Part shown: piece after piece, positions 3,103-47,072 of the stretch
Layout: every line of letters starts with the position of its first letter
How positions within the stretch are numbered: position 1 is the first letter of the stretch
Assembly: GCA_051047955.1 (NCBI GenBank)
Contig: JBPGPT010000034.1
Location: forward strand, 1-64,000
From: Cystobasidiomycetes sp. EMM_F5
Taxonomy: Eukaryota
DNA: 64,000 nt
Direction of reading: 5' to 3'
Program-made: the position numbers and the translations under genes
Notes under the pieces: generated by a model
The model's input: the letters and a program-made list of their open reading frames with translations, nothing else
Told to the model about the DNA's origin: nothing
Databases searched by the model: none

Positions 3103-4846
3103 ATGGCCAGCACATCGGCACCGTCGACCGCGACAAACGGGGCGTCGACCTCGTCAAATGTAGACTTTATGATTAAACCGTCGAGCGAAGCGCCAGCAAT
3201 AGACACGAGCAAATGGCCAATCCTCCTCAAGAACTTTGACAAGTGCGTCCAATGCCCTATTTTACTGCGCAAACACTCTCTTTTGCTCATCCCGCTCTCG
3301 CCGTCAGACTACTCGTCCGCTCGGCACATTTTACCCCAATCCCAGCAGGGGCTAGTCCGCTGAAGCGAGATCTTGCGAGTTATATCAGGTGGGTTGGGGG
3401 ATGCTGTCGGTTGTTCTCCTGCTCACACCCTCCCTGATCTCTTCCAGAACCGGCGTAATCAACCTCGACAAACCCTCAAACCCGTCATCCCACGAAGTCG
3501 TAGCATGGATTCGGAGGATACTGCGTTGCGAAAAGACAGGACACTCTGGCACACTCGACCCGAAAGTGACTGGTTGCCTGACTGTGTGCATCGACCGTGC
3601 GACGAGGCTCGTCAAGTCTCAGCAAGGAGCAGGAAAGGAATACGTCTGCGTACTCCGATTACACGACGCTCTCGAGAACGAAAAGGCGCTTCTCCGAGGA
3701 TTGGAAACACTTACTGGCGCTCTCTTTCAACGACCTCCCCTCATCTCCGCCGTCAAGCGCCAACTACGTATCCGCACAATCTACGAGAGCAAACTCGTCG
3801 AATTCGACAACAAACGACACCTTGCTGTCTTTTGGGTATCGTGTGAAGCAGGCACATACATCCGAACACTGTGCGTTCATCTCGGTCTGCTACTCGGCGT
3901 GGGCGGGCACATGCAGGAACTACGGCGTGTACGATCGGGTGCAATGTCGGAGAATGACGGGCTCGTGACGATGCACGACGTTCTCGACGCCCAGTGGATG
4001 TACGACAATACAGCCGACGAGTCCTACCTTCGACGCGTCATCAAGCCACTAGAGACTCTGCTCACCGGATACAAGCGACTCGTCGTCAAGGACTCTGCCG
4101 TCAATGCAGTATGCTACGGTGCCAAACTCATGCTTCCGGGTCTACTGCGCTTTGAGAATGACATCGAAGTCGGCGAAGAGGTAGTCTTGATGACGACAAA
4201 GGGCGAAGCTATCGCGATTGCGATTGCGCAGATGACAACGGTCGAACTATCAACGTGCGATCACGGTGTGGTCGCAAAGATTAAGCGAGTCGTCATGGAG
4301 AGGGACGTGTACCCTCGACGGTGGGGACTCGGGCCGCGCGCGCAGGAGAAGAAGAAGATGATCAAGGGAGGTCAGCTGGATAAGTACGGACGGACAAACG
4401 ATGCTACTCCCCAAAACTGGAAAAAGGAGTATGTCGACTATTCGGTGGAGGGAGATGCGCCACCTGCTGGTCTCTTACCGTCACAGCCTGAGGCTTCTAC
4501 ATCTACCGCGAATGGGGATAAGCCGTCAGCGTCTGCGGCAGAAGCTGAAGAGGGTGCGGAAGCGACAAAGGAGAAGAAGGACAAGAAGAAGAAGAGAAAG
4601 AACGCAGATGGTGCTGCCGCGGATGAGTCGGCAGCGCAAGGCGGGGACGTCACGATGGCAGATACGACGCAGGGCGATGTGACGAGAGATAATGGCGAGA
4701 CGGAGGAAGAGCGCAAAGAACGGAAACGATTAAAGAAGGAAGCGAAAGCTGCGAAAGCGGCTGCCGCTGAGGGCTTGAACGGGGAGGCAGCGAGCGAGGA
4801 ACCGAAAAAGAAGAAGAAGAAGACGGTCTCAGCAGGGGATGCGTGA
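3103..4846 (+). CDS. CBF5: H/ACA snoRNP pseudouridine synthase (dyskerin)
   Basis: [30 protein letters not shown], catalytic [15 protein letters not shown] domain and Lys-rich tail. Introns 3243-3307 and 3389-3447. Confidence 0.97.
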
Positions 4847-11835: not shown

Positions 11836-13302
11836 TCAGAACCAAATCGATACTGAAAACGAAGGTTCGAGGCTTTTGATTGCGTGCCACCATTTCGGAG
11901 GCATGAAGAGCAGGTCGCCTTCGCTCAAAATAGCTTGCATAGCGTAAGGCAAGACGTGCTCAACGAAATCAGCCGCACGAGGATTGTGCTTTTCTAAAGT
12001 GGCTTCATTCGCCACCTGAAAGACATCCAGAGATGCCGTGTTGTCCAGAAAATGCTCCATTGCTGTGTTTACCGTGGCTATGACCTCCGGGCTGGCCTCA
12101 TCTAATTGCTGGGAATCTCCATCAGGAACGGCCATGAAGGGTGAACATGCCGGAGGCGCGATCCAAATGTGCTTGCTCCCAACGACCTGTGCATAGCAAT
12201 TGAAGTAAGGATCAGTGTGTGCGGGGCTATAGGTGCCTTCTGGCCCCATCCAAGCATTGCAGATGTAGCCGTCTTGAGTGTTTGGCGGTGTATACTCAGG
12301 AAAGTAGATTGGAGCACCGGGTGAGGCAAGCACATAATCCGGCAAGGCTATGTCGTTTCGCAATTGCGGAAGTTGCTGAAACAGATCATGTTGGGCCAGG
12401 TATAATTTCGACTTGTTCTCGTCGCGATGTTGTAAATCATGGTCTTGCCAGTGAATATCCCTGAGGAATTCGCCAAAGTCCATCAGCTTCTGGCTCCAGC
12501 CTTCTGAAGTATACGATGATCCGATTTCGACAGGAACGATTCGGCCACGTCCAGCTACGCCTAGAAGGTATTCCTCGCTCTGCCACCGCCTTGATACGTC
12601 TGCAAGTGCTGGCCAGTGTGATGCCCCGCCCGTCACGACGAATGGGGCGTGAGCAAAGTCCTCATACATCTGCGGTGCGTCAGACACTGCGTATCGCCGA
12701 ATCTCTTGTACATTAGGGATTAGCCTGTTTCTTGGATGGCGAGTTGCATCTAGTGTCTCCGACAACAATCTTGCCCTTTTGGTCGGTCGTCTACTTCCTG
12801 TATCGTTCGAAGGGATATCTGTAGACTTCAAGCGTTCCTGCACATGAGCCATCATGGCAAAGAAGACCCTGTCCCTTTCGCTTGCGAAAAATGCCGACAC
12901 GATGTTTGCCTTGTCGAGCACCTTGACCAGAGAGACGAGTTCTGTTGGTGTGACATTTATGTTGGACCGGAGTACAGCGACGCAGTGTAGCAGACTAGCG
13001 TCCATGTACAGCTGTCGCCAATAATCCGGTACCTCGGCGTAGGGATATGTTGCAATGGCTTCATCGGCTACTTCGACCAAGAGGAGACACCTTTTGGCGA
13101 GGGCATCGGCTTCCGCTGGCTTGAATGAAGCTGCGTTTGAGAGTGCCATGTAGATACTGCTCACGATACTCTCGGTAGGTGCCCCACAGCCGTACACCGC
13201 TACACAATGGCAGTCAGCGTCGGAACGAGCCAGCGGTACTCTGCGCCTACCGCTCCCGCAGTCGCTCAGCTTTTTAGCGCATTCTTCTAGCGTCAGCGAC
13301 AT
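11836..13302 (-). CDS. JmjC-domain 2-oxoglutarate/Fe(II) oxygenase, JMJD5/KDM8-like
   Basis: GRIVPVEIGSSY, YLAQHDLFQQLPQLRNDI, NAWMGPEGTYSPAHTDPYFN (HxD), QVVGSK, GDLLFMPPKWWH, SFSVSIWF. Confidence 0.9.
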   Translation of the reverse strand: MSLTLEECAKKLSDCGSGRRRVPLARSDADCHCVAVYGCGAPTESIVSSIYMALSNAASFKPAEADALAKRCLLLVEVADEAIATYPYAEVPDYWRQLYMDASLLHCVAVLRSNINVTPTELVSLVKVLDKANIVSAFFASERDRVFFAMMAHVQERLKSTDIPSNDTGSRRPTKRARLLSETLDATRHPRNRLIPNVQEIRRYAVSDAPQMYEDFAHAPFVVTGGASHWPALADVSRRWQSEEYLLGVAGRGRIVPVEIGSSYTSEGWSQKLMDFGEFLRDIHWQDHDLQHRDENKSKLYLAQHDLFQQLPQLRNDIALPDYVLASPGAPIYFPEYTPPNTQDGYICNAWMGPEGTYSPAHTDPYFNCYAQVVGSKHIWIAPPACSPFMAVPDGDSQQLDEASPEVIATVNTAMEHFLDNTASLDVFQVANEATLEKHNPRAADFVEHVLPYAMQAILSEGDLLFMPPKWWHAIKSLEPSFSVSIWF

Positions 13303-13510
13303 TCGTGAAGCATTGTATTGATGCCATTTGAAGTCAATTCAATTTTGCAAATTAAACAAGTCTCTCTAGCCCACCCGGGGGAAAGGTTCGATCATCTCAC
13401 TTACGCGACTAACATTGGACATTTTCAGACTTGGACGTCGACATTAACCACTTATATCCTGGACGGCGCTGTGGCTTGTTGACCAGGGTGCTGTCGCAGT
13501 AACAGCCATC

Positions 13511-15672
13511 ATGCAGGCCAATAGACCCAACGCTGCAAAGGGCCGGTCGCGGTCACCCGGTCGCGAGCCATTCGGAGCTGGCGGGCTCAGCAGCCAGCTG
13601 AACTCGCTGTCATTACGGACATCGCCTACGAAGCAGGGAACTGGTTCAACTGTGCGAGGTGCATCGCTGCACAAGAAGAGCAAATCTGCGACTGGCCAGC
13701 CAGTGTTTGATCGGTCCCGGTCTGGCTCGCCCGTCAAACAACAGACAAACAGCAGGCATGGTTCAGCAGTCCCGCTCAAGACTTCTCCGTCGAAAGCTGA
13801 TGCTCGGAGAGCGTATGGGCATGATGCCTTCGTCAGCACAAGCAAGACACCCAGCAAATCCATCATTGCCCGCGCCGGACTCAGCAAGAGTCTCGGTGCA
13901 GGAACCGTCTACAAAAAGGATTCGATTGTTGCCGCAGGAGGGCTGGGTCGAATGGACATTGCTACAAAGGACTGGGATGGATCAGTCAGTGCCGGAGTGA
14001 GCCCGAAGAAACGCTCGCTGAGTGCAAAGGTAAGATTCGAGCCGCCAAGTCATCGAGCATTAACACTGAATCGTCCGTTACATTCTAGAAATACGACCGC
14101 TTCATACCATCGCGAGAAAACTCTGGGTCTTCGGGGGCCACCATCATCAACGACGACATTCACCGCAAAGTACACGACTCATTTGATCAAGATGATTCCA
14201 AAGTTTCCGATTCAGCGCCAGATGACGGATTTGACGATTCTCCACCTCCGACTCCATATCGCGCGGAAACCTCAGATCAAGCTCATACAGCAGAACTTAG
14301 CAGTTCCTTGGGTATCGAACTCGGCAAACGGATATTGTCGTTTTCTGCAGAACCACCATGCGCATCCAATGAGCACTCGTCCCTCCTGGCGGCGTACGCT
14401 CGTGGTGATGGCGTTTCTGGAAAATCATCAAGCCACGCGACTGCTCAAGCCGCCAGTCAACGGAGACGGATTGCAACTACTGCCGAACGGGTACTGGACG
14501 CCCCTGGCTTGGTTGACGATTACTATCTAAATCTGCTCGACTGGTCTTCCACAAACCTAGTAGCAATTGCTCTGTCCGACAGCGTATACATCTGGAATGC
14601 CGAATCTGGCGACGTAGGGTGCCTGTGCTCCATCTCAAACGGAGACGAAACATCGGATGAAATAGTTTGTTCGGTTCGCTTCTCGGAGGATGGGTCGTAT
14701 CTTGCTGTGGGAACATCGTCAGGTCCGGTACAGATCTATGATCTCGCATCTTCATCGCGGGTGCGCAGTATGGCGGGACATGCTACCCGAGTCCCGACGT
14801 TATCGTGGAACGGAGCTGTCTTGAGCTCGGGCAGCAGAGATGGGTCTATCTGGAATCACGATGTGCGGATAGAACGGCACAAGATTGCAGAGATGCGCGG
14901 ACATCGCGCAGAGGTATGTGGTCTTGATTGGCGCCGAGATACTGGTATTGCAGCTGGGTCGGGCGGAGGAAGCGCTGGTGTCACGGGCCTCCTCGCTAGT
15001 GGCGGCAACGACAACGTGGTGAATGTCTGGGACGGTCGTATGCTTTCAGCACCAAAAATGGTCAAAACCAATCATTCTGCTGCTGTAAAGGTTGGCCGGC
15101 TTGTAAAAGCTAGTTTGTTTGCTGCTGACCAGCTTCCGGCAGGCCATTGCATGGTGTCCGTGGCAGCCCTCCCTCCTTGCGACAGGAGGAGGATCTTCGG
15201 ACAGGACCATACAGTAAGCTCCTCTCGTAAATGCCACTTCTTGACTGCACTCTGACCTAATTGGTGCAGCTTTTGGAATACCACCACTTCGGCAAGGCTA
15301 AACTCGCTCGTTACGCCATCTCAGGTCACCTCGCTTCGCTTCAACCCTCATGCCAGAGAGATACTATCTTCACATGGATTCCCCGACAACCAGCTCTCTG
15401 TGTGGTCCTTCCCGACACTAACGAAAATTGTCGACATCAACAGCGCTCATGAAACACGAGTTCTGCACACCTGCCTTTCGCCAGATGGTACGACTGTTGC
15501 GACAGCAAGCTCTGATGAGAATCTCAAATTCTGGAAGGTGTTTGATTTGCCAAAGAAGACCGTCTCTTCGTCTGGGTCAGCCTTCATCGGCAAAGGCAGT
15601 ACGATAGGAGGACCTGGAAAGCGTGACGACGATGTTGGATGGCGAGGCCGAACGGGTATAGCAATCCGCTAG
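13511..15672 (+). CDS. CDC20: APC/C activator WD40 protein Cdc20/Slp1
   Basis: C-box YDRFIPSR near 14092, KRILSF motif, [23 protein letters not shown] repeats, [10 protein letters not shown] and C-terminal IR tail. Confidence 0.93.
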
Positions 15673-15837: not shown

Positions 15838-18800
15838 ATGACGGGCAAACATGCGCCCGTAGCATCGCGTTTCTTTGCCAAACCCAGCCAGGCTTCGACG
15901 TCTCAGCTCAAGCAGCAGACGAGCGTCATCAGCCTGAGCGATGACAGCGACGACGGCGACGGCGAAGTACAAATAATCGGGCAGACCCAAGGTAGCAAGA
16001 CATTCAGCACCGTACCGTTAAAGCGCAGTGCAGACGCGATAAAGTCGACAGAGACCTCGGATGCTCCGAGCAAGCAAATCAAGGTCGCGCCGTTGTTTGA
16101 GCGGAAAAGGTCCACCGTCGAAGCGAAAGCAGAGGAGACGACAAACCTCTCCTTGCAAGCATTGCAGCAATGGAAGTTTTCGGCCCAGCCGTCCCAAAGT
16201 GCAGCTCGTCAAGACGCACCAACGTCGTCGCCACTGCCAGAATTACCGCGAAGAATACGTCCGAAGACTACGACCCACCAAGCGAGTATTGCAGGCAGAA
16301 CAATATCCAACGGGAGTGGTACGCGGAGCGGAGATGAGTTGGGTGACCGTCTACATGAAGGCGTCCCGGGACAACGTCCAGACGGCTTCGACGGAGCCGA
16401 TGATGTCGACATATCGGAGGAACAGGATGAGCATGCTGAAAACAGTGATGGAAATGACCAAGAAGGCACCACTTTCTCCAATAGAATCCAATCAAGGTCC
16501 GCCCAACAAAGCACGAGCGCAGCCATCTCACGACTTAGCAAGTTTGCCGCATCTGGATCAGACGATTCGGATGCTGCCCGAGGCAAGAAAACGCGCAAAG
16601 GCAAAGGCAGAGCGACAGCTGCTGTGCCGGATGATGAAGCCGTCTATACACCCCTTGAAAAGCAGTATATGGAGATTAAGCAGAAATACGTATGGCGACA
16701 TTGCCCATCCAGAAAATGTTGCACGATGTTGACCTTCTGACTATAGCCTGACACACTCCTGATTGTGGAGGTTGGATACAAATTCAAGTTCTTCGGCGAC
16801 GATGCTAAGGTCCGCAGTCCATCCAACATGCAACACTCTATATCCCGTGCTGAATAAAATCTGAAAAGATCGCATCCAGAGAACTCAACATTGGTACTTT
16901 TCACTTCTGAACATTGAGAGCAGAGCTCATCACCTTCTCGCTACAGCCTGTTTCCTGTCACAAAACTTTTATACCGCCATGATTCCCACTCATCGTCTAC
17001 AGATTCACATTAAACGCCTGATCACTGCCGGTCACAAGGTAGGTGTGGTCAGGCAGAAGGAAACAGCAGCACTCAAGAAAGCTGGCGACAATCGCTCCGC
17101 TCCCTTTACTAGGGAGTTGACCAAGTAAGTCGGTGGTTCAAGCCATGCACAGCATACAGCTTAACAGAAGCAGTCTCTACACTGCTGCAACCTTTGTTGA
17201 GGGATTAGACGATGACACCGTCAGTGGATCCGAGCCTACTTCTGGTACAATAATAGGACTATTTGAAGAAAAAAATGGAGGTAAAGCCAGCGACGAAAAG
17301 GTTGTCTTTGGACTAGTCGCCGCGCAAGTCAGTACCGGCGAGGTGATCTTCGATGGTAATCTAATGCACATATTCCTTATTAGTATATTGCATCCTGACT
17401 GATGTCGAGCAGAATTTGATGACGGCTTCCTGAGGGCTGAACTCGAGACCAGGCTGCTGCACCTCCAGCCCGGTGAGATCGTCTTGCTTGGCGATATATC
17501 TCCACCAACAAACAAAGTCATCTCATATTTGCTGAGTCAAGAGTGCGCGATTCCTGCACGTTGTATCTGACACGGGCTAACTGTCTTAACATCTCCAGTG
17601 CCGTTTCTACAGGTACCTCCAGAGGCAGAGTCATTGGCGACCGCAAGACCTATTCACTCACCGAAGCCACTACACAAATCGTTGGCTTTTTTTCGGAGAA
17701 TAAACCGACATCCATAGATTCACCGGCTAAGCGCAAGAGAAAGCCATCCCGATCTGACACAGCTCGACACGCGTCCGCAAATCATGCCCTCACTATTTCA
17801 GACAGTGAAGACGAGCCGCAGAACCCGCCCATATCAAATCGGGAAAGAGAAGACTGTCAAAGCGGTCAGACCGGTTGTCACGGCGAAAGGCTTTGACTAA
17901 CATACTTCTGGGCAGTGAAGGAAAATAGCTCACTTTCGGCTGTGTTAGCTTTGCCGGAAAGGGTTATGTGAGTATTCAGTCAGATATCGAGATGACTGCT
18001 GACGAAAACGTCTGACAGTCGGGCGCTAGCTGGCTTACTTGAGTATCTCGGCGACTTCAAGCTGGATGCAGCCTTGCAAAGACCTAAATTCTTCACGCCG
18101 TTCGCCGAACGAGGGCATATGCTGCTTAACGCCAGTACTATATCCAATTTGGAAATCTTTAGGAATCAGACAGACTTCAAAACGTCCGGAACGCTATTTT
18201 CAGTACTTGACCATACACAGACTGCGTTTGGGCGACGCTTGCTGCGCAAATGGGTAGCAAAGCCACTTCTACAGCGTCATGAGCTCCAAGAACGTATTGA
18301 TGCCGTCGATGAGGTCTTGAATTCGTGAGTTGCGACGAAGGTATTGTCAAGCCTCTGACATTTGTGCGTCAGGCATTCGTATCTACTTGGACGCTTGCGC
18401 GGTCTACTCAAGGGCCTACCTGATCTGGAACGCGGACTAGCTCGTATACACTATGGCAAAGCTACGCCACAGGAACTTATACGGGTTCTGATGGCATTTC
18501 AGCGCATAGGAGACGAGTTCCCTAATCTTCCTACGGCGCTCAAGGGATCGAGTATTGGTTTTCAGTCCGAGGCTATCAACTCAGCCTTTGAGGCCCTTCC
18601 AACGATCAAAACGATCGTCGATGAGTACCTGCAGTCCCTTAATGCACCCAAGGCTCGCGAAGGCGTGAAGGAGGATATGTACTCGCCAGACTTCGAGCCG
18701 GAAGGCATCACGGACTGCAAAGACATCCTTGTCACAGTCGAGGCTGAAGTATAGGCTTGTTAGTCCTTCAAGGTTGGCATTGACCTGACTCCCTTATTCC

Positions 18801-20672
18801 TCGTAGTTTGATACGCATCTTAAAGATTGTCGAAAGATCCTGAAGAAGCCACAAGCGCAATACATGAGTGTTGCGCAAGAGGAGTATCTGCTTGAAGTAG
18901 TACGACGCTTTTCAATATCCTTCTCCTCTATTACAAGCTGACGACTTGGAGAAGCGTGTATCGGATGCCAAATCAGTTCCCGCCAACTGGTCACGCATAA
19001 ATGGAACAAAATGCATGTTATCACCATCATCCATCCTTCTGAACAAGCTAATTTACTGTGACCCATAGCCGTGTACCGTTATCGGTCACCAGACATGCAA
19101 AGATTATTGGACGAGCGGGCACAAGCGCTAGAAAGGTTAGCGGCAGAGGCCGAAGCTGCGTTTCAGCTGTTCTTGAAGTCTATCACATCACAATACGAAG
19201 CCTTCCGAAAAGGTGACGTTCAACCACGACGACATAGGATGGCTTACTGATTCTTGTACAGTCATCGTCGCGCTTGCGACAATGGATTGTTGGTGGCAAC
19301 TCTACTGCTCGAGTGCCAGGCTGATGCTGATTCAGGTCTACTGTCACTTGCCTTCGTGGGACTGTACCCTGGATACACTAAACCCGTAGGCACAAGCGGA
19401 AATGCAGTACGCTTGATCGCAGGTAGCTCATGCTGCATCATAGATTCTGGCGGATCGAGCGTGTCTGACGATCAGAGGAGGTCGACATCCTATTGTGGAA
19501 CGTCGTACGTAGTACAATTATGGCTACAGCAATTGTCTGATGCTCCTTGACAGTTTCCGACAGGCCCTTCATCCCGAATGACGTCTGCCTAAGTGAGGAT
19601 GGCTTGCGCGCAATGGTCATCACTGGCTGCAATATGTCTGGGAAAAGCAGCTTCTCCAGGATGGTGGCGCTTCTCGTCATCATGGCTCAGATTGGGTGTC
19701 ATTTGCCATGCGATAGCGCAACTATTGGGATGGTTGACTATGTCGGTTGCCGATTTGGCGCATCTGATGAGATCACGCGCGGCCGTAGCGTAAGTATTTT
19801 GCGAGTATTGCAGGCCTTGGCTGACAGATTTAACAGACTTTCATGGTTGAATTGGCGGAGACTTGCGAGATCATCAAGGCAGCCACGAGTCGGTCGCTCA
19901 TTGTCCTCGACGAACTGGGTCGGGGAACTTCAACGCGAGACGGTCTAGCTATCGCGTACGCTGTGCTCAGATACATTGTCACGAGCCTCAAGTCGTCAGC
20001 ACTGTTCATCACTCATTATCCGCAGCTGCAGGACATCGCCGCCGTACGTCCACCCCTATTTTCAGCTCCGATCGCCTTGTCGGCGCAGCGACGCGAATTT
20101 TGTCTGACTGCAGTATCACTCATTCCTGCAGGAATATCCACGAGCATGTCAGCTGTTTCAGATGGCCTACATGGAAGAAGAAGTTACAGGACGCGCACCT
20201 GACATAACTTTCCTCTTTAAGCTGATGTAAGTGCTGAAGTCGTGTTTGACACCAAGAGGCCTATGATGTTTTATAAACATATCAAGCTCAACAATCCTAG
20301 CCAATTTTGGTTTTGAGGAGCATTTATATATTCTTCTTCTTCTTATTTCTTTGGCTGAGGCCCCTATCGTCATGCATGATTCGACGGCATACGAACGTAA
20401 TCTGACGATGTTCTATCGTTCTTAGACCCGGCTTAACGGACCGCGTGCATGGCATTAGTTGTGCTCGTATGGCCGGTATTCCCGAGAGCGTTTGCTCAGT
20501 GGCTGCCGACACAAGCAAGCAAATCGAAGATGCAGATATCCAAGCCCGGCAGGATCGCACGGTAACGAAGTTTCGACAATTATTGCCGAACCTTGCCGGC
20601 GCATGCAACATGTCACCTGCCCGGTCTGTCGCAATCGCTAGGAATCTTTGCAATGAAATGCTGCATTCATAG
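15838..20672 (+). CDS. MSH3: DNA mismatch repair protein MutS homolog 3, many short introns
   Basis: [24 protein letters not shown] (K in place of the MSH6/MutS F is MSH3-type), [29 protein letters not shown], Walker [25 protein letters not shown] and LFITHY. Confidence 0.93.
20258..20362 (+). ncRNA. Intronic box C/D snoRNA with 25S rRNA antisense element
   Basis: In MSH3 intron 20227-20425: terminal stem GGCC/GGCC, box C ATGATGT (20263), box D CTGA (20355), C' TTGAGGA (20313), and TCAAGCTCAACA (20282-20293), complementary to the conserved LSU rRNA sequence UGUUGAGCUUGA. Confidence 0.8.
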
Positions 20673-20792
20673 TTGATCCTTATACTACATCGTGCCGTGC
20701 AATTATTACAAAATGTGTGCCGTCGGAGCGGCTTCGGAAATCTCGCAACGTGGTTGCGATCAACGAAGGCGGAGGCGAGTTTGCAGGCTCAA

Positions 20793-23700
20793 TTAAGGAG
20801 CTTTACGTTTGCGTTCGCGCTTGCCCGATGTTTTGAGGCTTAAAAGTGCAGGTTCTGATCCACCTTTTGTTGAGGCTACTTCGCCATCCGCCGCGGCAGC
20901 GGCATCAGAGGCTGTCACGACAGATGCGTTGGCATCGACTCCCTTCCTACTCTTCTTGGACTGCCTCTCGGCCTTGATAGACACGCCGTTTACGCCATTT
21001 GGCGATTTACGTTTGTGGACCAAATCAGTGAATTTGCGGATCAATGGCACAACGGATTTTGCTGCCGCTATATGCGCAGCGTTGCGCAGATCATGCAGGA
21101 CGGAGTTGAGTTCTTCTGCGCGCCAAACTTCCGAGACCTCCTTGTGGGTGTTGCTAGATCTGCAACAGATTTCCGTCTTGCGGACCGCTTGCGTCGCTGT
21201 GTCGAGTATCGACCTGATGCTCCCTATGTTTTTCAAGTATTGCGCTGACTTCGCAATAGCAGCAAATGTTTCGATATACACTTGTACGACGCGCGGCATG
21301 ATCGACATGACCTCCGCACGGGCTTGTTCAATTTTCTGAATGAAGGAATTTTAAGTTGCACCGTCATCACCGCAGAGGCATCACATACAAGGCTTCCTTT
21401 GCTGGAAAGAAGATCTGCAAACAAGGTAAAGGCTTGCGCCCGCGAATAACTGTCAGCCTTCGGGTCAACCGCTACGCTCAACCATTGATCTGCCAGCCGC
21501 CAAGACAAGCGACTGAAGCGACTGTGGTAGGCCTGGAAGAACTTCTTATGCAGCTGAGATTTTTTGCGGTACGCAAAGTCTGTCAATGACTGCTCCCAGA
21601 TATGGCTGACTGCATCAGCGTTTCGGTCCCCACTTTCGCTGAGCGCGATGCGGGTGAGGTATACTGCTGTGTCTGTTGCCAAGTTTGCTAGGTCTGGATC
21701 TTGCAGCCGTCGAGCTCCTATGTGGACCGCTGTCAGTATGGGCAAGGCGTCCTCTGCATGATCGACTGTGGGATACGCTTTCGGCTTGTTGACAATGTTC
21801 CGGAGGATCCGTGCTGCTTTTCCTGAGATCTCGGCATCCGCCTTCGCGGGAAGTCGGGCTGTATTGAACAAAGTGAGAACAGCAGGAAGTAATAATGGCG
21901 AAGCTGGCTGTTGCTTGGCGTAGATTTCCAATAGATCCAGCGTCTTCAAGCGGGCGTTCAGACTATTCTCTTGCTCCGCGCGCTGATCCTTACTGGCGTT
22001 TGTCCTGCTTCTGAAAATTTCCGCGAGTTGCTCGTCGAGCTGCAGCATCTGCTCATCGTCCATGAGCTCTTCCTCGTCGTCCTCCTTGCTCTCGTTATCA
22101 TCATTGCCTTCATCCTCCTCGCCGACGCCGGCTCCTTTAAGAGCGGCTGCCACCTTGTCGCGCAGTTCCGGATCGACAAGTTCCAAGTCCATGCCATCTA
22201 TGTCGTCCTCGTCGAACTCGTCTACGGAATTGTCCTCGTCGTCTTCGTCCTCATTGCTACTGTCTGCATTGCTCGTGCCCTCTGCTTCAATAACCTCACT
22301 CGCATCCTCAGCATCGTCTCCGTCAGCCGGAAGCTGCTCAGAGTCTGGTTGTATTTGCTGGGTGGACAGCCTATCAGCTGGCATTCCGAACAAAGCGACT
22401 GGATGGCAATCTTACATCAAGAAGTAGAGTCATTGCTTGCTCTTTGATGTCGCCTGTGAAAACCGCAAAGACACGTTCGCATGTTGTACGCAGTAGTGCA
22501 GACGGCGTTTGCAGGAGCTGGACCAAGAGATCCACGAGAACGGAAATAGACTCGGCTTCTTCACCTTCTTCGTCAGACTCGTCGGCTGCGGGCTTTTTGA
22601 TTTGTGCAGGTGGTGTATCAAAGATCAATCGTTCAGCTGCATCGCATAGCTCCTGCAGTCACTCTACTTCAGTAAAGGCGGCGATGTTACTGGAAGCAGT
22701 AATCCTACCTCGAGATTGTCGCCGGCTTTCTCTTCAGGGTCGCGAGCAAGTAAGAGAACCACATCAAAGAGGAATAAGAGCGGCATAGCTTGTGAGTCGT
22801 TGGTCTGCACAATGCTGAATTCAGCGCAAAGACCACGAAGGGTGACAAATGTAGAATACCTTTTCTTTGAGTCGTAGGACCAAGTCCTCTGCACGCGTCC
22901 CATGCTCTTGTAGCGCATCAGATACTTCGAGCAATGGTTGCACATGCTTGTCGTCCCTTCCAAGCGCTCTTAACGTCTCCAAGATTTTGCTCGACCAGTA
23001 CTGACCACTGCATTTGGCCGATACCGAAACGAGATGCGAAAGAGTCGAAAACAGACGGCTGCGGAACACAGATTGTGTAGACGTCGAAAATGGAACAGAA
23101 GGAAGGTCCTTCAGTGCAGCATTATTTGATTTTTTGCTTGTTTTACGGACTAAGAAGAAGCCATGGGTTGCCATAAAATTGAGGATGCGCAATAGCCAGG
23201 AGGGATGTCTTTCGGATGGAGCTGCATCCATTTGGACACCCGATTGTACTACGGACTGAAAGTGCCTACGAGCGAGAAGCAGCATCTGGTCGATGGCCCA
23301 CGCTCTTCTCCCATCTACTGCTTTCGTGTCGACAGCCATGCTTTCCGAGTTCTCATGATCACCGTTAACACCGTCAGCTCCATCAATATCATCTGTGTCT
23401 TGAGCGGATTGATGCAAGATGAATTGCTCAAGCCAGGTAATGTACTGCTGTACGCCAGCATCGTCCAGCACTGCGACAATGCCCTCCACGGTCTTGGTCC
23501 TTGTAGCTGCATCGAATCTGATACTGCCAGCTGGACCTGCCACTATCCTCAGCAAGACATCGTACCCAGATGCGGGGCAGCGTGCGATGGCAGTCGGTAG
23601 CGTGGCAGAGACTTGTCTCGAGAGATTGTGAAGAGCACGATCGGGCTTTACGAGGTGATTTGTGAGTGTGCGAAGAAGATTTGGCGTAATTATTGCGGGT

Positions 23701-25052
23701 AGCTCTTGGCTGCCAGCACGGCATAGAAGCGCTTGGACGGCGAGCAATCCGGTATACTTTGAGGCAGTTGATGCAGTAGGACCGAGCAAAGACTCTGCAT
23801 CATGGAAGAAGGACGACTTAATCTTGAGCGATCAGACTTGTAATACCGACACGCCCACTCACCATCGACTATAATCTTGAAGAAAGTTTCAAAAGACACA
23901 TTGTCTGATGTACTCAAACTTTCTACATCTATCTTTGCCTTTTTCCGCTGGGGTGGTTGCGAATCGACATCCTCAGCCGCGCTTGCTGGAAAGTAGGCAT
24001 CGATAATCTCTGACCAGACGTAGTGCAGTTGGCCATTTCCAAAGAAAGCAGAACTAGCGTCGTTGGCTTTATTTCCGGCGTTTGCTGGTATCGAAGGCAA
24101 GCCGCGGAGTATTCGAGCTATTCCTGGGAGATTCTTGCTCGATAGGATAGTCTCCGAATTGGGTAGCGCCGGTTTCAAAGTAGCACACGGTGTCCAGTCG
24201 ATATGTGCTTGGTGTGACGAGCGAGCCTTGAGCATAATGGCCATTGCTAGCCTTTCGGACGTCCACTCGGGGGCAGCCTTCTTGGACGGTCCAGCGTCTG
24301 CGGAAGGAAGCGGGGCAAAGACATTGTTGACGATGATCTGAAGACCATGATCTCTCGAGGTGATGTCGTTGGCGGATTTTGCTAGCAGAGAGAAGGCTGC
24401 TTCACGGACCACCCATCCGGCGCTCTCGTGCAACCATGGTTTTCGGTCTCCGAGAACGAGCGTCTCTTCGATGACCGTCTGCCAGTTTCTTACATCTGGA
24501 GGAGACGCAGACACGCTGCGGAGTAGGATGCCAGAAGCGACGAGGGCGTGCAGGCCAAACAGGCGAGCAAACAGCAAATCCCGCTCCTCTGCGCCTCTGT
24601 GGGTCGCGGGATGTACTTCGGTAGTGGAGAGGATTTGCGATATGGTAGGCGCGGCGGGAATGTCTGGAATGCGAGCGAGGATCTGGCAGGAGCATACAAG
24701 CCATTAGCCATGTACAAAGGTATATATTGCCATCGACTGCGAAAAAACTTGCTTCGGTCAGAGCTACTGCGAAACCGAGCCTGGACGACTCCCTCGGGCT
24801 TGCGAGACCTCTGATGAGACGCTTGAGGGCGTACACGACGTCGCTCGCGAGGCCATGCTCGCCGGGGGATGTGACGATATTTGCATCAATATTTGCAGAA
24901 ACTGACGACGGCAGACTGGGGACTGCGGAGAGGGCGAGGTGCTCCGACTGGGCAGCCTGGAGGTGAGCTACGAGAGCGGCACCGCCGTGGATTCTGACAT
25001 TGGCTGAGGGGTTCCAGAGCTGGCTGAAGATGGGCAGCAGCTGGGACGACAT
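20793..25052 (-). CDS. POL5: rDNA transcription / 60S biogenesis factor Pol5 (MYBBP1A family)
   Basis: YALKRLIRGLASPRESSRLGFAVALTE, LFARLFGL, IRFDAATRTKTVE, acidic stretch and MDDEQMLQLDEQLAEIF. Confidence 0.92.
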
Positions 25053-25304
25053 TATGATGGCGGATTTAATCGGCGGCAGTGAATACGGCGGTCATGAGTG
25101 GGCTGCCAATAGATTGGCAGCAGTTGTTTGAGAATATTCAGTGCTGATGGTGTGTAAAAGCGAGTTGGGCTATCGCATCTGATTGCATTTCGAAAGTAAA
25201 TCATCTTGCAATTCTGGCAATTTCAAACAATCCTGATTAGTACCACCCACACTGACCACTCTGAATATTCCCACTCCTGCTGGCGTACTCCCATCACCAT
25301 CGCC

Positions 25305-27955
<2,651 letters not shown>

Positions 27956-32857: not shown

Positions 32858-35800
32858 ATGAGCTCGCCGGCCGCAGAGCCCGACGCGACTGATATATTGA
32901 CTGGCCGCGTCGCCGTCAATACGACACCGAGCAGCACACCGTCGCCCGCACCGTCCATCACGGCCAGCGATGTTGACGACGCGCTCGTTGCGGCTGCGGG
33001 CGATGCAGACCAGGAAGAAGCTATCGTTGACCGCGTCGTTCCAGCGCAAAAACGGATTTCCATCTACGTGCAGGTGTTTGAGGAGATGATCCAGACAGTG
33101 ATGGAACACGAGAGCTTTCTGTTCAATGAGGAGGAAGTCGCCCTCATTCGCGGTTTTGGCCAGATGTCTTGTGAGTTGCGATGGCGCAAATATAGCATGT
33201 ACAACAACGCTGACTGGGATATCAACAGACGAAGCACGATACCTCTTCGTGCGACTCTTCGCTCGAAAGAATGGATGGTTCCGTGTCTCAAAGCTCAAAT
33301 ACGCAGATGAGCTAGGAAACGTACAAAATGCCGTAGACGAACTCAGTACATTTGTACTATCTACACCGTCCGCTGGCATCTCGGAAGGGCAGTCTGATAG
33401 TTCTTTCACTCTTGAGGAGTCTCATTACGCGAACGCGGAAGCAGGCCCTTCCGTTCTAACGATTCCATCGAGCCCCGTTAGGCCGGGCTATATCACAATT
33501 GATGATACCGACGAAGAGCTCGCCAAGGATGATGCAATCGACCCGTTAACAAACCGACGGTGCAACGAAGTCATCAAGGACTATCAAGATTTCGGATTGT
33601 CCAGATTCGCCATCAATGAGAAGATTTTGGCAGAACGAAGTAATATAGACGACTTGTTGGCGTTACTGTCACTGGATGAGCTCAAAGATCTCGGCAAGGA
33701 ATTGAAGATATCCGGCAAAACTACTAGATCGACACTCATCGAAGCTATTTTGCGAATATCGTCGAGCCAGTCGACCTTGACGAGCATGTTTGCAGTCGGG
33801 CAAGCGAGAGCTGATGCCAGACGAAGTGGAGAAAGAGGCAAAGGTAAACAACGGATGCCATCACTCAAAGAACAGCAGCGCAGTCAGACACAGATGCTCA
33901 TTGCGAAAAGTCAGTGAGGACTGCCAGGTGACAGTATGCCTATTATGGTACTGACGAACCATCACATCAGTTCTCGCTCATCTCGGTGGATGCATCAAAC
34001 TGGAGAGTGGACCTATCCGACTCTTTGCTCGGCTCCATCTTCTCTACTATCGGTCGCTCACTTACTCAGAAAAGACGCTCACGCAAGCCGTCCTTGCAAG
34101 ATTCAAGATACGAAACTATCCTTCTTACACGGTCAAGCGGAGTTGCAGCATCTTCAAGGACAGGCAGGCCCTGGTAGATTACGAAGATGCTCTTATCATT
34201 GAACGACAAATGGAAGAATTAGTCGGTGATGTTTCTGACCCCTCGGCTGCGCGGCGAATGCGCAAAATGACCAAAGAGGACCGAGAACGCAATTTCCGTG
34301 ACGCACAACAGTTGTTCGAGGCCACGCTGCCCAGATGGCAGCAGCTGGTCAAGGAAGCACAAGCGCTAGACCTCGACACAAGCAAATCAGGATTGGGTAA
34401 TGCCTTCAGCCACTCCGATGACCGGCTTGTTTACTATCGGAAGCGGTTCCTTGCGGGCTGGCCGCTCACACGAGTAGTTTACAAGGGGACTACCGTCTTG
34501 GCCAAGCTGCACGAATACGAGCGAGAATCTCAAGTGCTACGAGAACTACTTGATCAATCCTGCTTTCGCCGCGGGAAGCGAGGAGAGTGGTACGACCGGT
34601 TGGCTCTCGTACTCATGCATCATATTAAAGGTGATAAAGATGAGAATCGCAAGGAAGCCCTGCGAATTTGTAACGAGGGTCTGTCTCATCCTTGGACGCA
34701 TCTGGGTAAGTTTACGCTACACTTTTGCTTACATACGTTACAGCTGATATCTATGATAGTCTACCACAATTCGCTCCAACGCCGGATAGTCCGTCTTGAA
34801 AGGGCCTTGGCCGTTACTGAGGGGGAAAAATCTCCTGTTGTAGCAGTGTCGCTGCGCTCGGCCAAGAAGCGGGTGATGAAAGGCGAAAGATTAGAAGAGG
34901 GCGAGACTGGGAAGCACAGCATCTGGCGCAGTTCCGACGGCGCAGAAATAAGCGTCGAGGCTTTAGCTTTGGAGCAGTACAACCGCGAAGGCTGGAAAGG
35001 TTTTCATTCTGAAAATGGGATCCTAACTACTATCGTAAGTCCAACATGCACATTTCCTAGACGCCGTCACTAATACATCAGCAAGAAGTTTGCTCTGCTG
35101 TTTTACGATGTCATTTTCGCACCGGTCGAGGGAGTTTTCGAGACTGCATATCAAGCAGCCCCATTAGATCTATCTACTGACGCGTTCGCTATTGGTGGGT
35201 CTATCATGCTGAGACAGCGACCGGAGCACCGCTAACTCGTATGGTTCACAGTACGGACGGAGTTGGTTCAGGAAAGACTGGCATTGATTCGCGAAGGTCA
35301 AGGTCTCGCGCTTCTCAGCGAAGCCGACGATCGCGAGCGACCCAACAAGACATTCTGCGTTGGCCTACGATGGGCATACGAGAGGGAGGATCTGATCGAG
35401 ATCGTTCAGTGTTTGTCTGCAACCGCACTAGCAGCCATCTGTCGCGTTTACGCGGAGGAGTGGAGTCACCGAATAGGCGGCGTTCCAGATCTCTTTCTGT
35501 GGAATTTGGCAGAAAAACGGGCACGCTTCGTTGAAGTCAAGGGTCCTGGCGACATCCTTAGCGAGACGCAGAAGGTTTGGATCGATGTCCTTATGTCTGC
35601 GGGGGTCGAAGTGGAGTTGTGCGCGGTTCAGGAAATTCTGGAAGAGGAGGCTTTTGCTAGTAGTACCGACGAAGAAATCAGAGCAAACAGTCGAAAGCAG
35701 ACGACTAAAGCGACTAAAGCGAAGCGAAGACCCTCTCTCCCTGCATACTCTGCTGAATCCGATTTGGAAACAGAGAAAGAGTTGCATATTTCGAAGCGGC

Positions 35801-38079: not shown

Positions 38080-41000
38080 CTATCGCCGTTCTTTGACGAG
38101 AACGACGAGGGCTACAAAGGATAAAACAATAAAACCGCCAAAGTACGCACAGAGAATGATAAAGTCAGGCCACCAGAAGGCTTGCGCGCGAAAGCCAAAC
38201 ATTGACAGAATGGTTGCTGCCGGAACTTCAATGTCGACACCGTACTTGTGTTCGATAAGCTGGAGGTATCGGACCTCATTCACAAGCAGTCCCTCGAAAG
38301 CTGCGTGAAAGAATGATACTGTCTGTAGCCAGCCGACACCGAGAGGAACCTTGTCTCGATTGACCAGCAGTCCAGCAAAGAGTAGACTGCAGCATCAACG
38401 TCTGGTTAGCGGGGGAGGTCGGTTGTAGTATCGGGGCAAAATGACCTACTTCCACAGCATGACCAGACTGCCGAGGAGATTAGCCACGCCAGAATTACTG
38501 ACGACGATGCTGATGAAGAATATGACGCTACTGGCCGCCAAGTTGAACATGATGAGGACCAGGATGAATTTCCAAAACTCCGGAACGCTAGATACTAGAC
38601 CAACAGGTCCGTATACAATGGCGCCCAGGATGAATGGAGGGATGACTCGCAATGGCAGCACATCAAACAATACCTTGGCAGTAAAGTACGTGAAAGGTGC
38701 GTAATAGCCATTTGATCGTTCTCGCATGAACAGAATCCTTTCTTTGCTGAAGACGTCCAACGACGTCAGGCACGAAAACCCGAAGAGTGCAAGGACGAAG
38801 AAGAACAAGCCCATTCGATTCTGAAAGCCTGCTATATCGTTTCTGCGCCGAAGTTATACAGTCAGATGCGCATGCATGTGATGCTAGTACTGAAAGGAGA
38901 CAAAACCTACGTGACGTTGGCGAAAAGGAAGCTGCAAAGCACTGTGGATGAAAGCAGCGTCAATATAGGCCAAATGTAGGTCAGGCGAGGAACAAACAGG
39001 CAACCAGGATCGATACAACATAGTGCGACAGCAGAAGCATCGGGTTTCGATACAGATTCTTGAAAGCTCGTCCACTCAGTATCGTGAACTGAGTCCACCA
39101 ACTTGCCCGCTGGAAGCCGGCCAGAGTTTCAATGTCTGTTGCATTCTGATCGGGTATCACAGCGTTTCTGTGTGCTTGATTTTGAGACATCATGCTCGCG
39201 GCAATGTCGCTTTGCTGGTACGCCTTGATGAGACTCGTTAGATGAGGGCCTATGGTGATAGACGATATTTCAGACTGTCGACCGAACAAAGCTGATCTTA
39301 AGCCATTCTTGGAACCGCGCTTCGTAAGTTCTGTATCGCTCTCGTGAGCGCGAAAAGCGGGAGACCGTGATGACTGCGGAGTCTCTTCATCGCCATTTGG
39401 TCTGGGAGTCATGTCACTTTTGCTGTTCGAAGCGGAAGCCGTCTTCTCGTCCTGCATGGTCAAATCGACTGGGTGGCGCTTTCAGCTGTCATGGTAGGGT
39501 AGACTTGGTAAGTCAAGCTTACTGAGGTAGTCGGCGATGTTGAAACCTGGGGGACAAGAGTGACCTATCGATTCAAAGTATGACTGGCATTGACGGTATC
39601 CGCCAGAATAGACGACCTTGCCCCCGGCCAGGAGCAGGAGCTGATCAAACAGAGTTACAATGTTGCTTCTGGGTTGATGGATGGTGAAGACGACGGTTCT
39701 GTTGTATGTCTCAGCCAGGCTCTTGAGTGATTCGATGACGTTGATTGCGTTAAATGCATCTAGGCCAGATGTTGGCTCGTCCAGAAACAGAATCGATGGG
39801 CTAGTCACAAGCTCGCAGGCTATCGAGACTCTGCGCTTCTCGCCTCCAGAAATAGATCTTTTGCCTGACTCGCCTATGCGAGAGTCTTTGATGCCCAATA
39901 TCCCAAGCTCGTGCAGAGTCTCCAGTGTCCGCATCTTCTTATCTTCGTACGACATTTCGCGTGGCAGTCGCAACAGAGCTGAATACAAGACAGTCTCGTA
40001 AACAGTCAAAGTACCCATAAGTGTGTCTTCTTGATCAACAAAGCCGGTGATACGCCGATACTTTGTACTACTCATCGTTTTGCCGTTGACACGGATGTGG
40101 CCTCCGACTGTACCTCGTTTGGTCTTCTGAGCCAGAATGTCGAGAAAAGTGGATTTACCAGCTCCGGAGGCTCCCATCACAGCCAAAAGCTGACCGGGCT
40201 GTACGTTGCCTGACACCTCGGACAGGACCTGTTTACCATTTGGTGCAACGTAAGACAGGCCGTCGAAATGCACGGTCGCCGGAACTCTTTGCCCCATCAG
40301 CTTGCTGATGGCATCGCCATTGTTGCTGTCATCGCCATTTAAGCGAATCTTGCCATACTCCGATGATTCTCTAGTTCTTCCGAGATACCAAAATACTGTT
40401 TTACACCATAGCATCAGTAACGTCCGAGCACTGAGGGGTCCACCTCTTACGAAGACAGGCAGCAACAACCGTTGCTCCGACGGTCGCGATACTGAATGCC
40501 AAAAGCCTGGAATTGTCGGGTTTGAAAGGCGGTTGGAAGCCAGGAACCATCTGATAGTGCATACATTCTCCGGAATTGCAATTCAGAGTAATGTACTCGT
40601 CCCCAAATATGTCATTGATGAGCTGGTTCATGGCTGGTTCTGTGAAAAGGCAGCCCGAACCATCATCTTTGCATGAAAATGTACCAGGGCCTTTTATTTC
40701 TTCCGCCAAGAAGTCGTCAATGTCTGTATGAGATGCTATCAGGGCATTGCAAGCCACATGAAAGGCGGTTACGTACTAACAGAACCGTCCTCGCCGCATA
40801 GCATGCGCCCGGGCATACATGAACATTGAATCTTGTTGCAATCATACTTTGTCACATTGGCCTTGGACTGAGAATCTCTTGTAACGGAACACTCATCAAG
40901 CCCGCAGTAGAAGGATTCCAGACCGCCAACCCAAAACTGGAATCCGCATGTCGAATCAGTCGTATCGCAGGCAAAGGTGACCTGGGGTGGGCGATCCGGC

Positions 41001-41925: not shown

Positions 41926-47072
<5,147 letters not shown>

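Follow-up and report, generated by a model that had tools for sequence, protein, structure and literature searches.

Box C/D snoRNAs are stable RNAs of ~70–120 nt bound by Snu13, Nop56, Nop58, and fibrillarin, with box C (RUGAUGA) close to the 5′ end, box D (CUGA) close to the 3′ end, and a short terminal stem joining the two. Those acting as guides contain an antisense element, 10 nt or longer, that ends 1–3 nt 5′ of box D or D′, and the target nucleotide lies opposite position 5. Intron-encoded snoRNAs are found in sense orientation, one per intron, and end some tens of nucleotides 5′ of the branch point. Two described systems are closest to the locus presented here. In Arabidopsis, G2410 and U2411 are both ribose-methylated via the D′ guide of SnoR29, as reported with the help of a T-DNA mutant, with G2410 opposite position 5 of the guide and U2411 opposite position 6, and the functional SnoR29.2 guide adjoins a degenerate D′ box (PMC8053127). 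In N. crassa, 26S-Um2372 is the listed target of Nc CD20, for which S. pombe snR88 is given as a homolog; in the same table, Um2372 lies 7 nt before Um2379, the site of the snR66 homolog, and 11 nt before Um2383 (PMC2780460, Table 1). The same paper gives GenBank accessions EU780925–EU780999. The main text of PMC5824354 mentions neither snR88, CD20, nor snoR58, nor the terms 2410, 2372, MSH, or “host gene”.

We analyzed a stretch of 64,000 nt from Cystobasidiomycetes sp. EMM_F5 (contig JBPGPT010000034.1; hereafter the window), in which positions 20257–20364 (+) probably encode an ordinary intron-borne box C/D methylation-guide snoRNA, as judged from sequence comparison. The open reading frame pieces flanking this locus matched the Pfam domains MutS_III and MutS_V, and many of the 120 homologs listed for them are named MSH3. 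In a tblastn search against the window, 11 MSH3 homologs aligned collinearly within 16327–20690. The penultimate exon (20132–20226, +) is an open frame ending in FLFKL, which is aligned to about 20224–20245 by two of them (P0047, residues 1071–1113, and P0021, to residue 1017). The last exon (20426–20672, +, including the stop codon) continues in the ORF frame and is aligned from about 20421–20430 by three of the 11 homologs (P0021, residues 1017–1088; P0047, 1109–1155; P0067, 1055–1147); at an E-value threshold of 1e-3, the alignments of the remaining eight stop short of this exon.

Between these two exons, with collinear homolog alignments on both sides, lies an intron of 199 nt (20227–20425, +, GTAAGT...TAG), which is the last intron of MSH3 because the frame of the following exon runs to a stop codon at 20670–20672. 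Candidate GT–AG introns between the neighboring aligned blocks measure 43–49, 49, 47, and 45, 70 or 88 nt. The 199-nt intron is thus two to four times longer than its neighbors, and it is the only long GT–AG candidate among them. Its G+C content is 0.40 and that of the snoRNA candidate 0.36, compared to 0.52 for the window. A previous reading made from the sequence alone (the sequence-only reading) had described a long, AT-rich intron with shorter neighbors and assigned it to the end of MSH3, and both statements are borne out by the base composition, the MutS domains, and the homolog alignments. The sequencing runs listed as containing the stretch included no RNA run. Of four runs aligned to the locus, all of them metagenomic DNA or contigs, one gave three contig pieces, a second gave one piece, and another a single weak read, none with a splice junction; one of the three pieces, a 151-nt contig from a phyllosphere metagenome, spans positions 20201–20351 with three differences.

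The predicted snoRNA has a length of about 106–109 nt, with RF00360 aligning to 20256–20364 and our covariance model R1 (see below) to 20255–20366. Its parts, all on the plus strand and hence on the sense strand of the confirmed intron, follow the canonical order of box C, D′, hairpin, C′, box D, and a 4-bp terminal stem. Box C (ATGATGT, 20263–20269) agrees with RUGAUGA at six of seven positions, with a T for the last A, box D (20355–20358) reads CTGA, and the stem is formed by GGCC at 20258–20261 and GGCC at 20359–20362, as expected for the class; the equivalent stem covaries among homologs. The antisense element TCAAGCTCAACA (20282–20293) is followed by a degenerate box D′ at 20296–20300, which can be read as CCTA (20296–20299) or CTAG (20297–20300). 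Between D′ and C′, a hairpin of five pairs occupies 20299–20312 (GCCAATTTTGGT at 20300–20311, enclosed by A and T). Box C′ (TTGAGGA, 20313–20319, with TGAGGA at 20314–20319) is a good match and aligns with the TGACGA of homologs in the R1 alignment. It is separated from box D by a pyrimidine-rich spacer (20320–20354). The end of box D lies about 45 nt from CTGAC (20402–20406, +) and 67 nt from the 3′ splice site. CTGAC is branch-site-like by consensus only, with the snoRNA ~40 nt upstream of it and the 3′ splice site 20 nt downstream. When the sequence was re-read, every motif named in the sequence-only reading was found again, and its classification of the locus as a box C/D snoRNA holds in silico, given the motifs, the alignment to RF00360, and the stem and hairpin.

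The target of the guide was located on three stand-in LSU rRNAs (L162, L153, and L151), which come from contigs of other eukaryotes found in a genome-contig scan with the LR10R primer. TCAAGCTCAACA forms 12 Watson-Crick pairs with all three, a duplex equaled by only 3 of 200 shuffled guides. The target is a conserved LSU rRNA stretch in domain V, directly 3′ of the GAAAGAAGACCC motif, and falls inside the fungal 26S primer LR10R (PMC5981135, Table 1). On the stand-in rRNAs, the duplex starts at position 3 if D′ is CCTA and at position 4 if it is CTAG, giving an antisense element of more than the minimal 10 nt at a proper distance from D′. Position 5 would face a G (base 2 of the target 12-mer) with CTAG, the register used in plants, or a U (base 3) with CCTA, and these are the predicted methylation targets. 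The sequence-only reading had likewise recognized the 12-mer as antisense to conserved LSU rRNA and had arrived at a U or a G by the +5 rule, and the stand-in rRNAs agree with it on both counts.

SnoR29 (Z107/R87 in rice and Arabidopsis, RF00360) shares its antisense element, CAAGCUCAACA, with the candidate, placed ~13 nt after box C and 5′ of a degenerate D′, and the two nucleotides that it targets, G2410 and U2411, correspond to bases 2 and 3 of the same target 12-mer. This correspondence is fixed by G2392 and G2410 lying 18 nt apart, a distance that the D and D′ guides of plant-like homologs from metagenomes reproduce on the LSU rRNA of L151. These plant-like homologs and the window also have in common a CC two bases after the guide, and the register of D′ is the same in the window candidate and in plant-like and fungal-like homologs. 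In contrast, SnoR29 has a second functional guide at box D for G2392, 18 nt upstream. In the plant-like homologs, CCCGCTGAA before box D pairs at this G, whereas the window has a pyrimidine run instead and does not show the double guide typical of SnoR29.

For the fungal counterpart, L162, L153, and L151 all have a U at base 3 of the 12-mer, with further U's at +7 and +11. In yeast, snR66 and snR78 act on U2417 and U2421. With the snR66-type site 7 nt downstream of it, the N. crassa Um2372 equals base 3 of the 12-mer. Like Nc CD20, as described in the published table, the candidate would be a fungal, intron-encoded box C/D RNA with the same target nucleotide, but the two differ in architecture: Nc CD20 is listed with 75 nt, a D-box guide, and a 13-bp duplex (PMC2780460, Table 1), whereas the window RNA would have about 106–109 nt, a D′ guide, and 12 bp. 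The candidate does not follow the Nc CD20/snR88 layout of a guide beside box D in an RNA of ~75 nt. With both site and guide already known in plants and fungi, the G and U in domain V are not unusual targets.

The sequence-only reading had proposed either a different methylation guide or an rRNA chaperone, and the first of these is favored. A snoRNA that pairs with domain V for rRNA folding or pre-rRNA processing and leaves it unmethylated would be compatible with the degenerate D′ box and with S. cerevisiae, in which, to our knowledge, the predicted G and U carry no modification. Against this, Arabidopsis uses the same guide, in an identical register, for methylation (PMC8053127), the U is listed as the 2′-O-methylation target of Nc CD20 (PMC2780460, Table 1), and a search of the stand-in rRNAs found no extended or bipartite complementarity as in processing snoRNAs. 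Since the two nucleotides are known methylation sites, a chaperone function is not needed to account for the guide, and we consider it extremely improbable.

The D spacer (20320–20354) showed no convincing rRNA partner. Its best duplex with the stand-in rRNAs scored 8.5, and 192 of 200 shuffled spacers did as well. An additional pairing of the pyrimidine-rich spacer with a purine run beside the target (−16.1 kcal/mol) was rejected; few LSU pieces from elsewhere (36 of 500) matched its strength, but 545 of 1000 shuffled spacers paired as well, indicating an effect of composition. The D spacer thus appears to lack a target, which would make this a single-guide snoRNA.

Homologous guides were sought in Rfam and in metagenomes. 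At gathering thresholds, Rfam gave no matches across the window. RF00360 (snoZ107_R87) aligned over its full length with 20.1 bits (E = 0.074), below its gathering threshold of 50 bits, and has an identical 11-mer at the place of the window guide. A metagenome scan with a pattern composed of the C-box core, the 12-mer, and RNCC returned 125 loci, and the covariance model R1 was built from 16 of these. In the 16 seed loci there is a D box, and the terminal stem shows compensatory changes; neither feature was part of the search pattern. In the stem, 57% of cells pair versus 42% in shuffles, and the observed covariation score was reached by none of 500 shuffles. With R1, 37 of the 125 loci (30 distinct sequences) score 48.7–75.7 bits; these have the guide in the register seen in the window, together with a D box and the covarying stem. 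The same kind of pattern scan in viral contigs yielded 11 loci, all at or below 34.3 bits, and the LR10R primer scan of viral contigs 13 loci, one of them with a 364-nt LSU fragment. The window candidate scores 36.0 bits, between the loci that match by pattern only (17–35 bits, maximum 34.7) and the clear members (at least 48.7 bits). We therefore did not count the R1 score as independent support, as a value barely above the pattern-only loci means that the model adds little beyond the selection pattern.

Other features lie outside the pattern. Among the 81 distinct pattern matches scoring below 48 bits, a D box accompanied by a stem of 4 bp or more is present in one and a hairpin followed by TGANGA in two, but none combines the D box and stem with the hairpin and C′, as the window candidate does. 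The window shares the order of its parts with nine fungal-like intronic homologs from metagenomes (L003, L047, L061, L117, L024, L115, L026, L045, and L095), in which box C is followed, as in the window, by 12–17 nt, the guide, CCNA, a short hairpin at the place equivalent to 20299–20312, ~2 nt, a C′-like box, a spacer, and box D. The C′-like box reads TGACGA in five of the nine, TGGACA in two, and TGAAGA in one, and is not clear in L095. Several of these homologs are flanked by splice-site-like and branch-site-like motifs. A separate alignment of the nine sequences (A2) was not used, as MAFFT had misaligned box C in two rows. The D spacers of the fungal-like homologs differ from that of the window, and targets for the D guides of the homologs on the stand-in rRNAs reach 9–11 bp only.

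Differences from these homologs raise the question of whether the window holds a decaying or orphan copy, which may still be made but would no longer guide, with the site unmodified or served by another guide. The distance from box C to box D is 71–80 nt in the fungal-like homologs vs. 92 nt in the window, where the interval from C′ to D is ~20 nt longer and consists of low-complexity pyrimidine sequence. This, the D spacer without a target, a D′ of CCTA or CTAG rather than CTGA, and the deviating last base of box C are what one would expect of such a copy, and a second guide is conceivable because N. crassa serves the same U by a D-box guide of a different layout (PMC2780460). However, all homologs found have a non-CTGA tetramer or an offset CTGA at the place of D′, and a degenerate D′ also accompanies the functional guide of Arabidopsis SnoR29.2 (PMC8053127). 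Furthermore, the terminal stem and box D are intact in the window, as are the core of box C and the guide over its full 12 bp. Loss of function is thus a very unlikely explanation.

Another rival explanation is a look-alike arising by chance, in which a long AT-rich intron happens to contain C/D-like boxes, the palindromic GGCC on both sides, and an rRNA-complementary 12-mer, and gives rise to no stable RNA. Counted over both strands, the window has six pairs of box C and box D joined by a stem of 4 bp or more, and 48 of its 12-mers are antisense to the 5,368 nt of stand-in rRNA, compared to about 41 expected. Two of the other five box pairs contain such a 12-mer. Folding predictions give the candidate no greater stability than shuffled sequences (z = −0.61), and the R1 score exceeds the pattern-only maximum only slightly. 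By themselves, the boxes and the 12-mer do not exceed chance, and motifs of this kind occur by chance at an appreciable rate, a lesson for similar searches. The two other box pairs with a 12-mer (40586–40670, minus strand, and 57098–57191, plus strand) were rejected as chance matches; both lie inside open reading frames, and the target of each is present in one of the three stand-in LSU rRNAs, whereas the candidate lies in an intron and its target is present in all three. The call for the candidate rests on this context and on the comparison with homologs, not on the boxes and the 12-mer. Its guide, the distance of the guide from box C, and the D′ register equal those of an established guide family, the D box and stem occur together with the hairpin and C′ in none of the 81 pattern-only matches, and the targeted nucleotides are known methylation sites (PMC8053127, PMC2780460). 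A chance origin is therefore unlikely.

For an intron-borne methylation guide at 20257–20364, we infer the following route. The RNA would be freed from the last intron once this has been spliced out of the MSH3 pre-mRNA and debranched. Exonucleases would trim it as far as the kink-turn of boxes C and D and the terminal GGCC/GGCC stem, and it would be packaged with the usual C/D proteins Snu13, Nop56, Nop58, and fibrillarin/Nop1. The 12-nt element 5′ of the degenerate D′ may then pair with the conserved domain V stretch and place fibrillarin on the nucleotide opposite position 5. Methylation of both position 5 and position 6 is conceivable, as in Arabidopsis SnoR29. The fuller scenario, in which a guide for the domain V G and U moved into the last intron of the mismatch-repair gene MSH3 in a poorly sampled, Pucciniomycotina-like basidiomycete, the supply of this guide came to depend on how a low-abundance DNA-repair mRNA is transcribed and spliced, and its single D′ guide methylates positions 5 and 6, is a tentative one that we consider rather doubtful. 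If both nucleotides were methylated, the non-canonical “position 6” rule would extend to fungi. If the RNA is real, it would be one more snoRNA for the basidiomycete yeasts, whose annotation is sparse, and this lineage would use a D′-box layout for the domain V site, like plants and unlike the D-box layout of N. crassa. Neither the site nor the guide nor the mode of biogenesis is new, and the locus does not open a long-standing question.

A real RNA at this locus would also exemplify a snoRNA that has a DNA-repair gene, and not a translation-related gene, as its host. In a literature search, no MSH3-hosted snoRNA was found, with the matching titles being cancer reviews, and a search for basidiomycete snoRNAs and RiboMeth-seq retrieved nothing relevant, both as judged by title. 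The sequence-only reading had called such a host atypical, and in agreement with this, MSH3 is encoded at none of the 125 pattern-matching metagenome loci, the fungal-like homologs included. The plant-like metagenome copies are arranged in tandem on three contigs (L021, L028, and L054), whereas the window copy is alone in the intron of a protein-coding gene. Among the fungal-like homologs, the copy on L024 adjoins an ORF with a 50S-ribosome-binding GTPase domain.

The last intron of MSH3 (20227-20425, 199 nt) begins with GTAAGT, ends with TAG, and contains a branch-like site, CTGAC, at 20402-20406. The neighbouring candidate GT-AG introns, located between alignment blocks, measure 43-49, 49, 47, and 45, 70 or 88 nt. 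G+C content is 0.40 in this intron, 0.36 in the candidate snoRNA element within it, and 0.52 in the window. Both the host gene and the last-intron position had been claimed in the sequence-only reading, and both are borne out. ORF pieces around the intron match MutS_III and MutS_V, and a 69-residue exon retrieves thousands of MutS-V proteins, many of which, among the 120 matches listed, are named MSH3. Eleven MSH3 homologs align collinearly with the window in tblastn searches (16327-20690); three of them (P0021, P0047, and P0067) cover the exon 3' of the intron, P0021 and P0047 also cover the exon directly 5' of it, and residue 1017 of P0021 maps to 20224 and a second time to 20421. At E 1e-3, the tblastn alignments of the other eight homologs stop short of the last exon. 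Since a stop at 20670-20672 closes the frame of the final exon, 20227-20425 is the last MSH3 intron. A DNA-repair gene is an unusual location for a snoRNA, without demonstrated consequence. Convergent with MSH3 lies a DNA polymerase phi (Pol5/Mybbp1a-like) gene (21233-23831, minus strand), whose final ORF piece stops approximately 560 nt from the MSH3 stop.

Every motif of the proposed box C/D snoRNA was found in the sequence where it had been reported. A 5' GGCC (20258-20261) stands one base before box C (ATGATGT, 20263-20269), followed by the antisense 12-mer TCAAGCTCAACA (20282-20293), the D' candidates CCTA or CTAG (20296-20300), a hairpin GCCAATTTTGGT (20300-20311), box C' (TGAGGA, 20314-20319), a pyrimidine-rich spacer, box D (CTGA, 20355-20358), and, immediately after it, a 3' GGCC (20359-20362). 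AGCCAA at 20299-20304 is perfectly complementary to TTGGCT at 20351-20356, which overlaps box D, and this pairing replaces the small hairpin in the minimum-free-energy fold.

Taken alone, these motifs do not exceed chance. A motif scan for RTGATGN paired with CTGA, requiring a terminal stem of 4 bp or more, found six such pairs over both strands of the window, and the window holds 48 12-mers antisense to 5,368 nt of stand-in eukaryotic rRNA (LSU and 5.8S from contig L162, SSU from contig L153; approximately 41 expected), taken from contaminating contigs in prokaryote assemblies. Two of the five remaining box pairs also enclose an rRNA-antisense 12-mer; both sit within ORFs whose translations look protein-like, and the rRNA target of each occurs in only one of the three stand-in LSU rRNAs. 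The pair at 40586-40670 (minus strand; ATGATGG and CTGA, 5-bp TGCAA/TTGCA stem, 12-mer antisense to L162 LSU 2485-2496) was judged a chance occurrence on account of its open frame and singly represented rRNA stretch; the translation is Cys-rich, and an ABC-transporter ORF adjoins. The pair at 57098-57191 (plus strand; 12-mer antisense to L162 LSU 21-32) was likewise attributed to chance, as it lies in an open acidic, Ser/Gly-rich frame and its 12-mer is not beside box D. The fold of the candidate is no more stable than shuffled sequences (z -0.61), and no Rfam family reached its gathering score across the whole window. Eukaryotic rDNA occurs in L162 (complete LSU, 5.8S, partial SSU, linked 5S), L153 (complete LSU and SSU), L151, and 10 shorter loci, all on contigs filed as bacterial or archaeal genomes and MAGs, where it is likely contamination.

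Evidence above chance comes from the target, the homologs, and features independent of the search. The 12-mer pairs fully with all three stand-in LSU rRNAs (L162, L153, and L151) at a site immediately after GAAAGAAGACCC, and 12 pairs were attained by only 3 of 200 shuffled guides. We take this stretch to be helix 74, next to the peptidyl-transferase ring, which agrees with the proposed site near the peptidyl transferase centre. It falls inside the fungal 26S sense primer LR10R as listed in Table 1 of PMC5981135. With permissive thresholds, the plant Rfam family RF00360 (snoZ107_R87) aligns end to end with 20256-20364 (20.1 bits, E 0.074, cut-off 50), with an identical CAAGCUCAACA at equal spacing from box C.

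A metagenome search with the pattern TGATG, 6-21 bases, the 12-mer, and RNCC matched at least 125 loci, many of which inspection and a script both identify as evident snoRNAs with a common architecture. In this architecture, box C is followed by a gap of 12-17 nt, the guide, CCNN, an internal stem or hairpin, C', a second spacer, box D, and the terminal stem. In an alignment of 16 of these homologs, excluding the window, 57% of the cells of the 7-bp terminal stem are paired vs. 42% in shuffles and 23-37% in slid registers; the stem shows 19 double-sided changes, and its covariation score was matched by none of 500 shuffles. R1, the covariance model built from this alignment, gives 37 of the loci, representing 30 distinct sequences, scores of 48.7-75.7 bits. 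Its single match in the window is 20255-20366 (36.0 bits, E ~1e-6); pattern-only loci in metagenomes and 11 viral contigs alike reach 17-35 bits, so that the window's score mostly reflects the pattern itself and was not counted as independent support. The comparison set comprised 81 distinct, largely coding-like and GC-rich pattern matches below 48 bits. Among these, CTGA next to a terminal stem (4 bp or longer) occurs once, a hairpin (4 bp or longer) with TGANGA behind it, downstream of CC, occurs twice, and the two never occur together. The candidate has both features, which lie outside the search pattern (4-bp stem, 5-bp hairpin). The 30 clear members show the stem in 19 cases, the hairpin/TGANGA in six, and both in two; the internal regions of plant members are longer and escape the simple test. 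One AT-rich match (L007:825-921, minus strand; G+C 0.29) falls between clear members and background at 40.5 bits with R1, and one family member (L095:244-344, minus strand) has a perfect 10-bp terminal stem and CTTA in the expected place of box D.

The nucleotide targeted depends on the D' register. Table 1 of PMC2780460 lists Nc CD20 of Neurospora crassa as a 75-nt intronic snoRNA that was cloned and detected by northern blotting, with a 13-bp guide at box D targeting 26S-Um2372 and with S. pombe snR88 and A. thaliana snoR58 as homologs; Um2379 and Um2383 appear there as the sites of the snR66 and snR78 homologs. In L162, L153, and L151, the third base of the target 12-mer is a U, with further U's 7 and 11 nt downstream, and as this spacing matches the tabulated Um2379 and Um2383, Um2372 corresponds to base 3. 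With U2417 and U2421 as the yeast numbers, this is the U2410 of the sequence-only reading. In Arabidopsis, the RiboMeth-seq study PMC8053127 assigned 25S G2392 and G2410 to SnoR29, the G2410 guide lying beside a degenerate box D', and a SnoR29.2 T-DNA mutant showed that this D' guide also directs methylation of U2411, at position 6. When aligned with the L151 LSU, plant-like metagenome homologs place position 5 of their D and D' guides on G's exactly 18 nt apart, the downstream one being base 2 of the 12-mer, which fits G2392/G2410. In the plant register, with D' read as CTAG (20297-20300), position 5 would be G and position 6 U; in the alternative register, with CCTA (20296-20299), position 5 would be U. 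Both alternatives had been correctly derived, and methylation of both G and U is known from species other than S. cerevisiae.

The candidate is likely to be a functional methylation guide, and it would work like Arabidopsis SnoR29 and Rfam Z107-R87 and like Nc CD20 and snR88. Once the last MSH3 intron had been spliced out and debranched, exonucleases would trim it as far as the terminal stem and C/D kink-turn, leaving an RNA of approximately 106-109 nt; bound by the core C/D proteins, this RNA would base-pair through its D' guide with domain V of pre-25S rRNA, and fibrillarin would methylate the ribose of G and/or U. However, the candidate scores below the RF00360 threshold, lacks the second guide of SnoR29, and guides from D', whereas Nc CD20 guides from D. 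It thus departs formally from each of these snoRNA types and is best regarded as an added member of an established kind.

We treat the pyrimidine region before box D as a spacer, not as a second guide. No target was found for it in the stand-in rRNAs (best duplex 8.5, equalled by 192 of 200 shuffles), and its possible duplex with the purine run that immediately precedes the primary target (-16.1 kcal/mol) was equalled by 545 of 1000 spacer shuffles. A second spacer preceding box D, ...TTCTGCAAT..., is common to the fungal-like members L003, L047, L061, L117, and L095; no target was found for it in the stand-in rRNAs (best duplex 9-10 bp).

MSH3 was found by tblastn in none of the 125 metagenome loci compared, 80 of them covered with full flanks. 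An ORF that carries a 50S-ribosome-binding GTPase domain adjoins one fungal-like member (L024). The plant-like SnoR29/Z107-type snoRNAs come in pairs, with approximately 1.2 kb between the two copies on a contig (L021, L054, L028; also L022, L055, L029), consistent with plant snoRNA clusters. The window also encodes a nearly uninterrupted Cbf5/dyskerin gene (3356-4846, plus strand; DKCLD, TruB_N, TruB_C_2, and PUA domains), the pseudouridine synthase of H/ACA snoRNPs. Its sole 100% match is the window's own protein, and the best named matches come from Pucciniomycotina yeasts and rusts (roughly 72-85% identity), which points to a basidiomycete that has no close named relative in the searched collection. 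Further Pfam-recognised gene fragments (11836-15255, 25200-27197, 33955-35073, and 43818-44873) represent a JmjC/cupin-8 protein, a CDC20/Fizzy WD40 protein, an mRNA cap guanine-N7 methyltransferase, a FAN1-like nuclease TPR domain, and a protein kinase.
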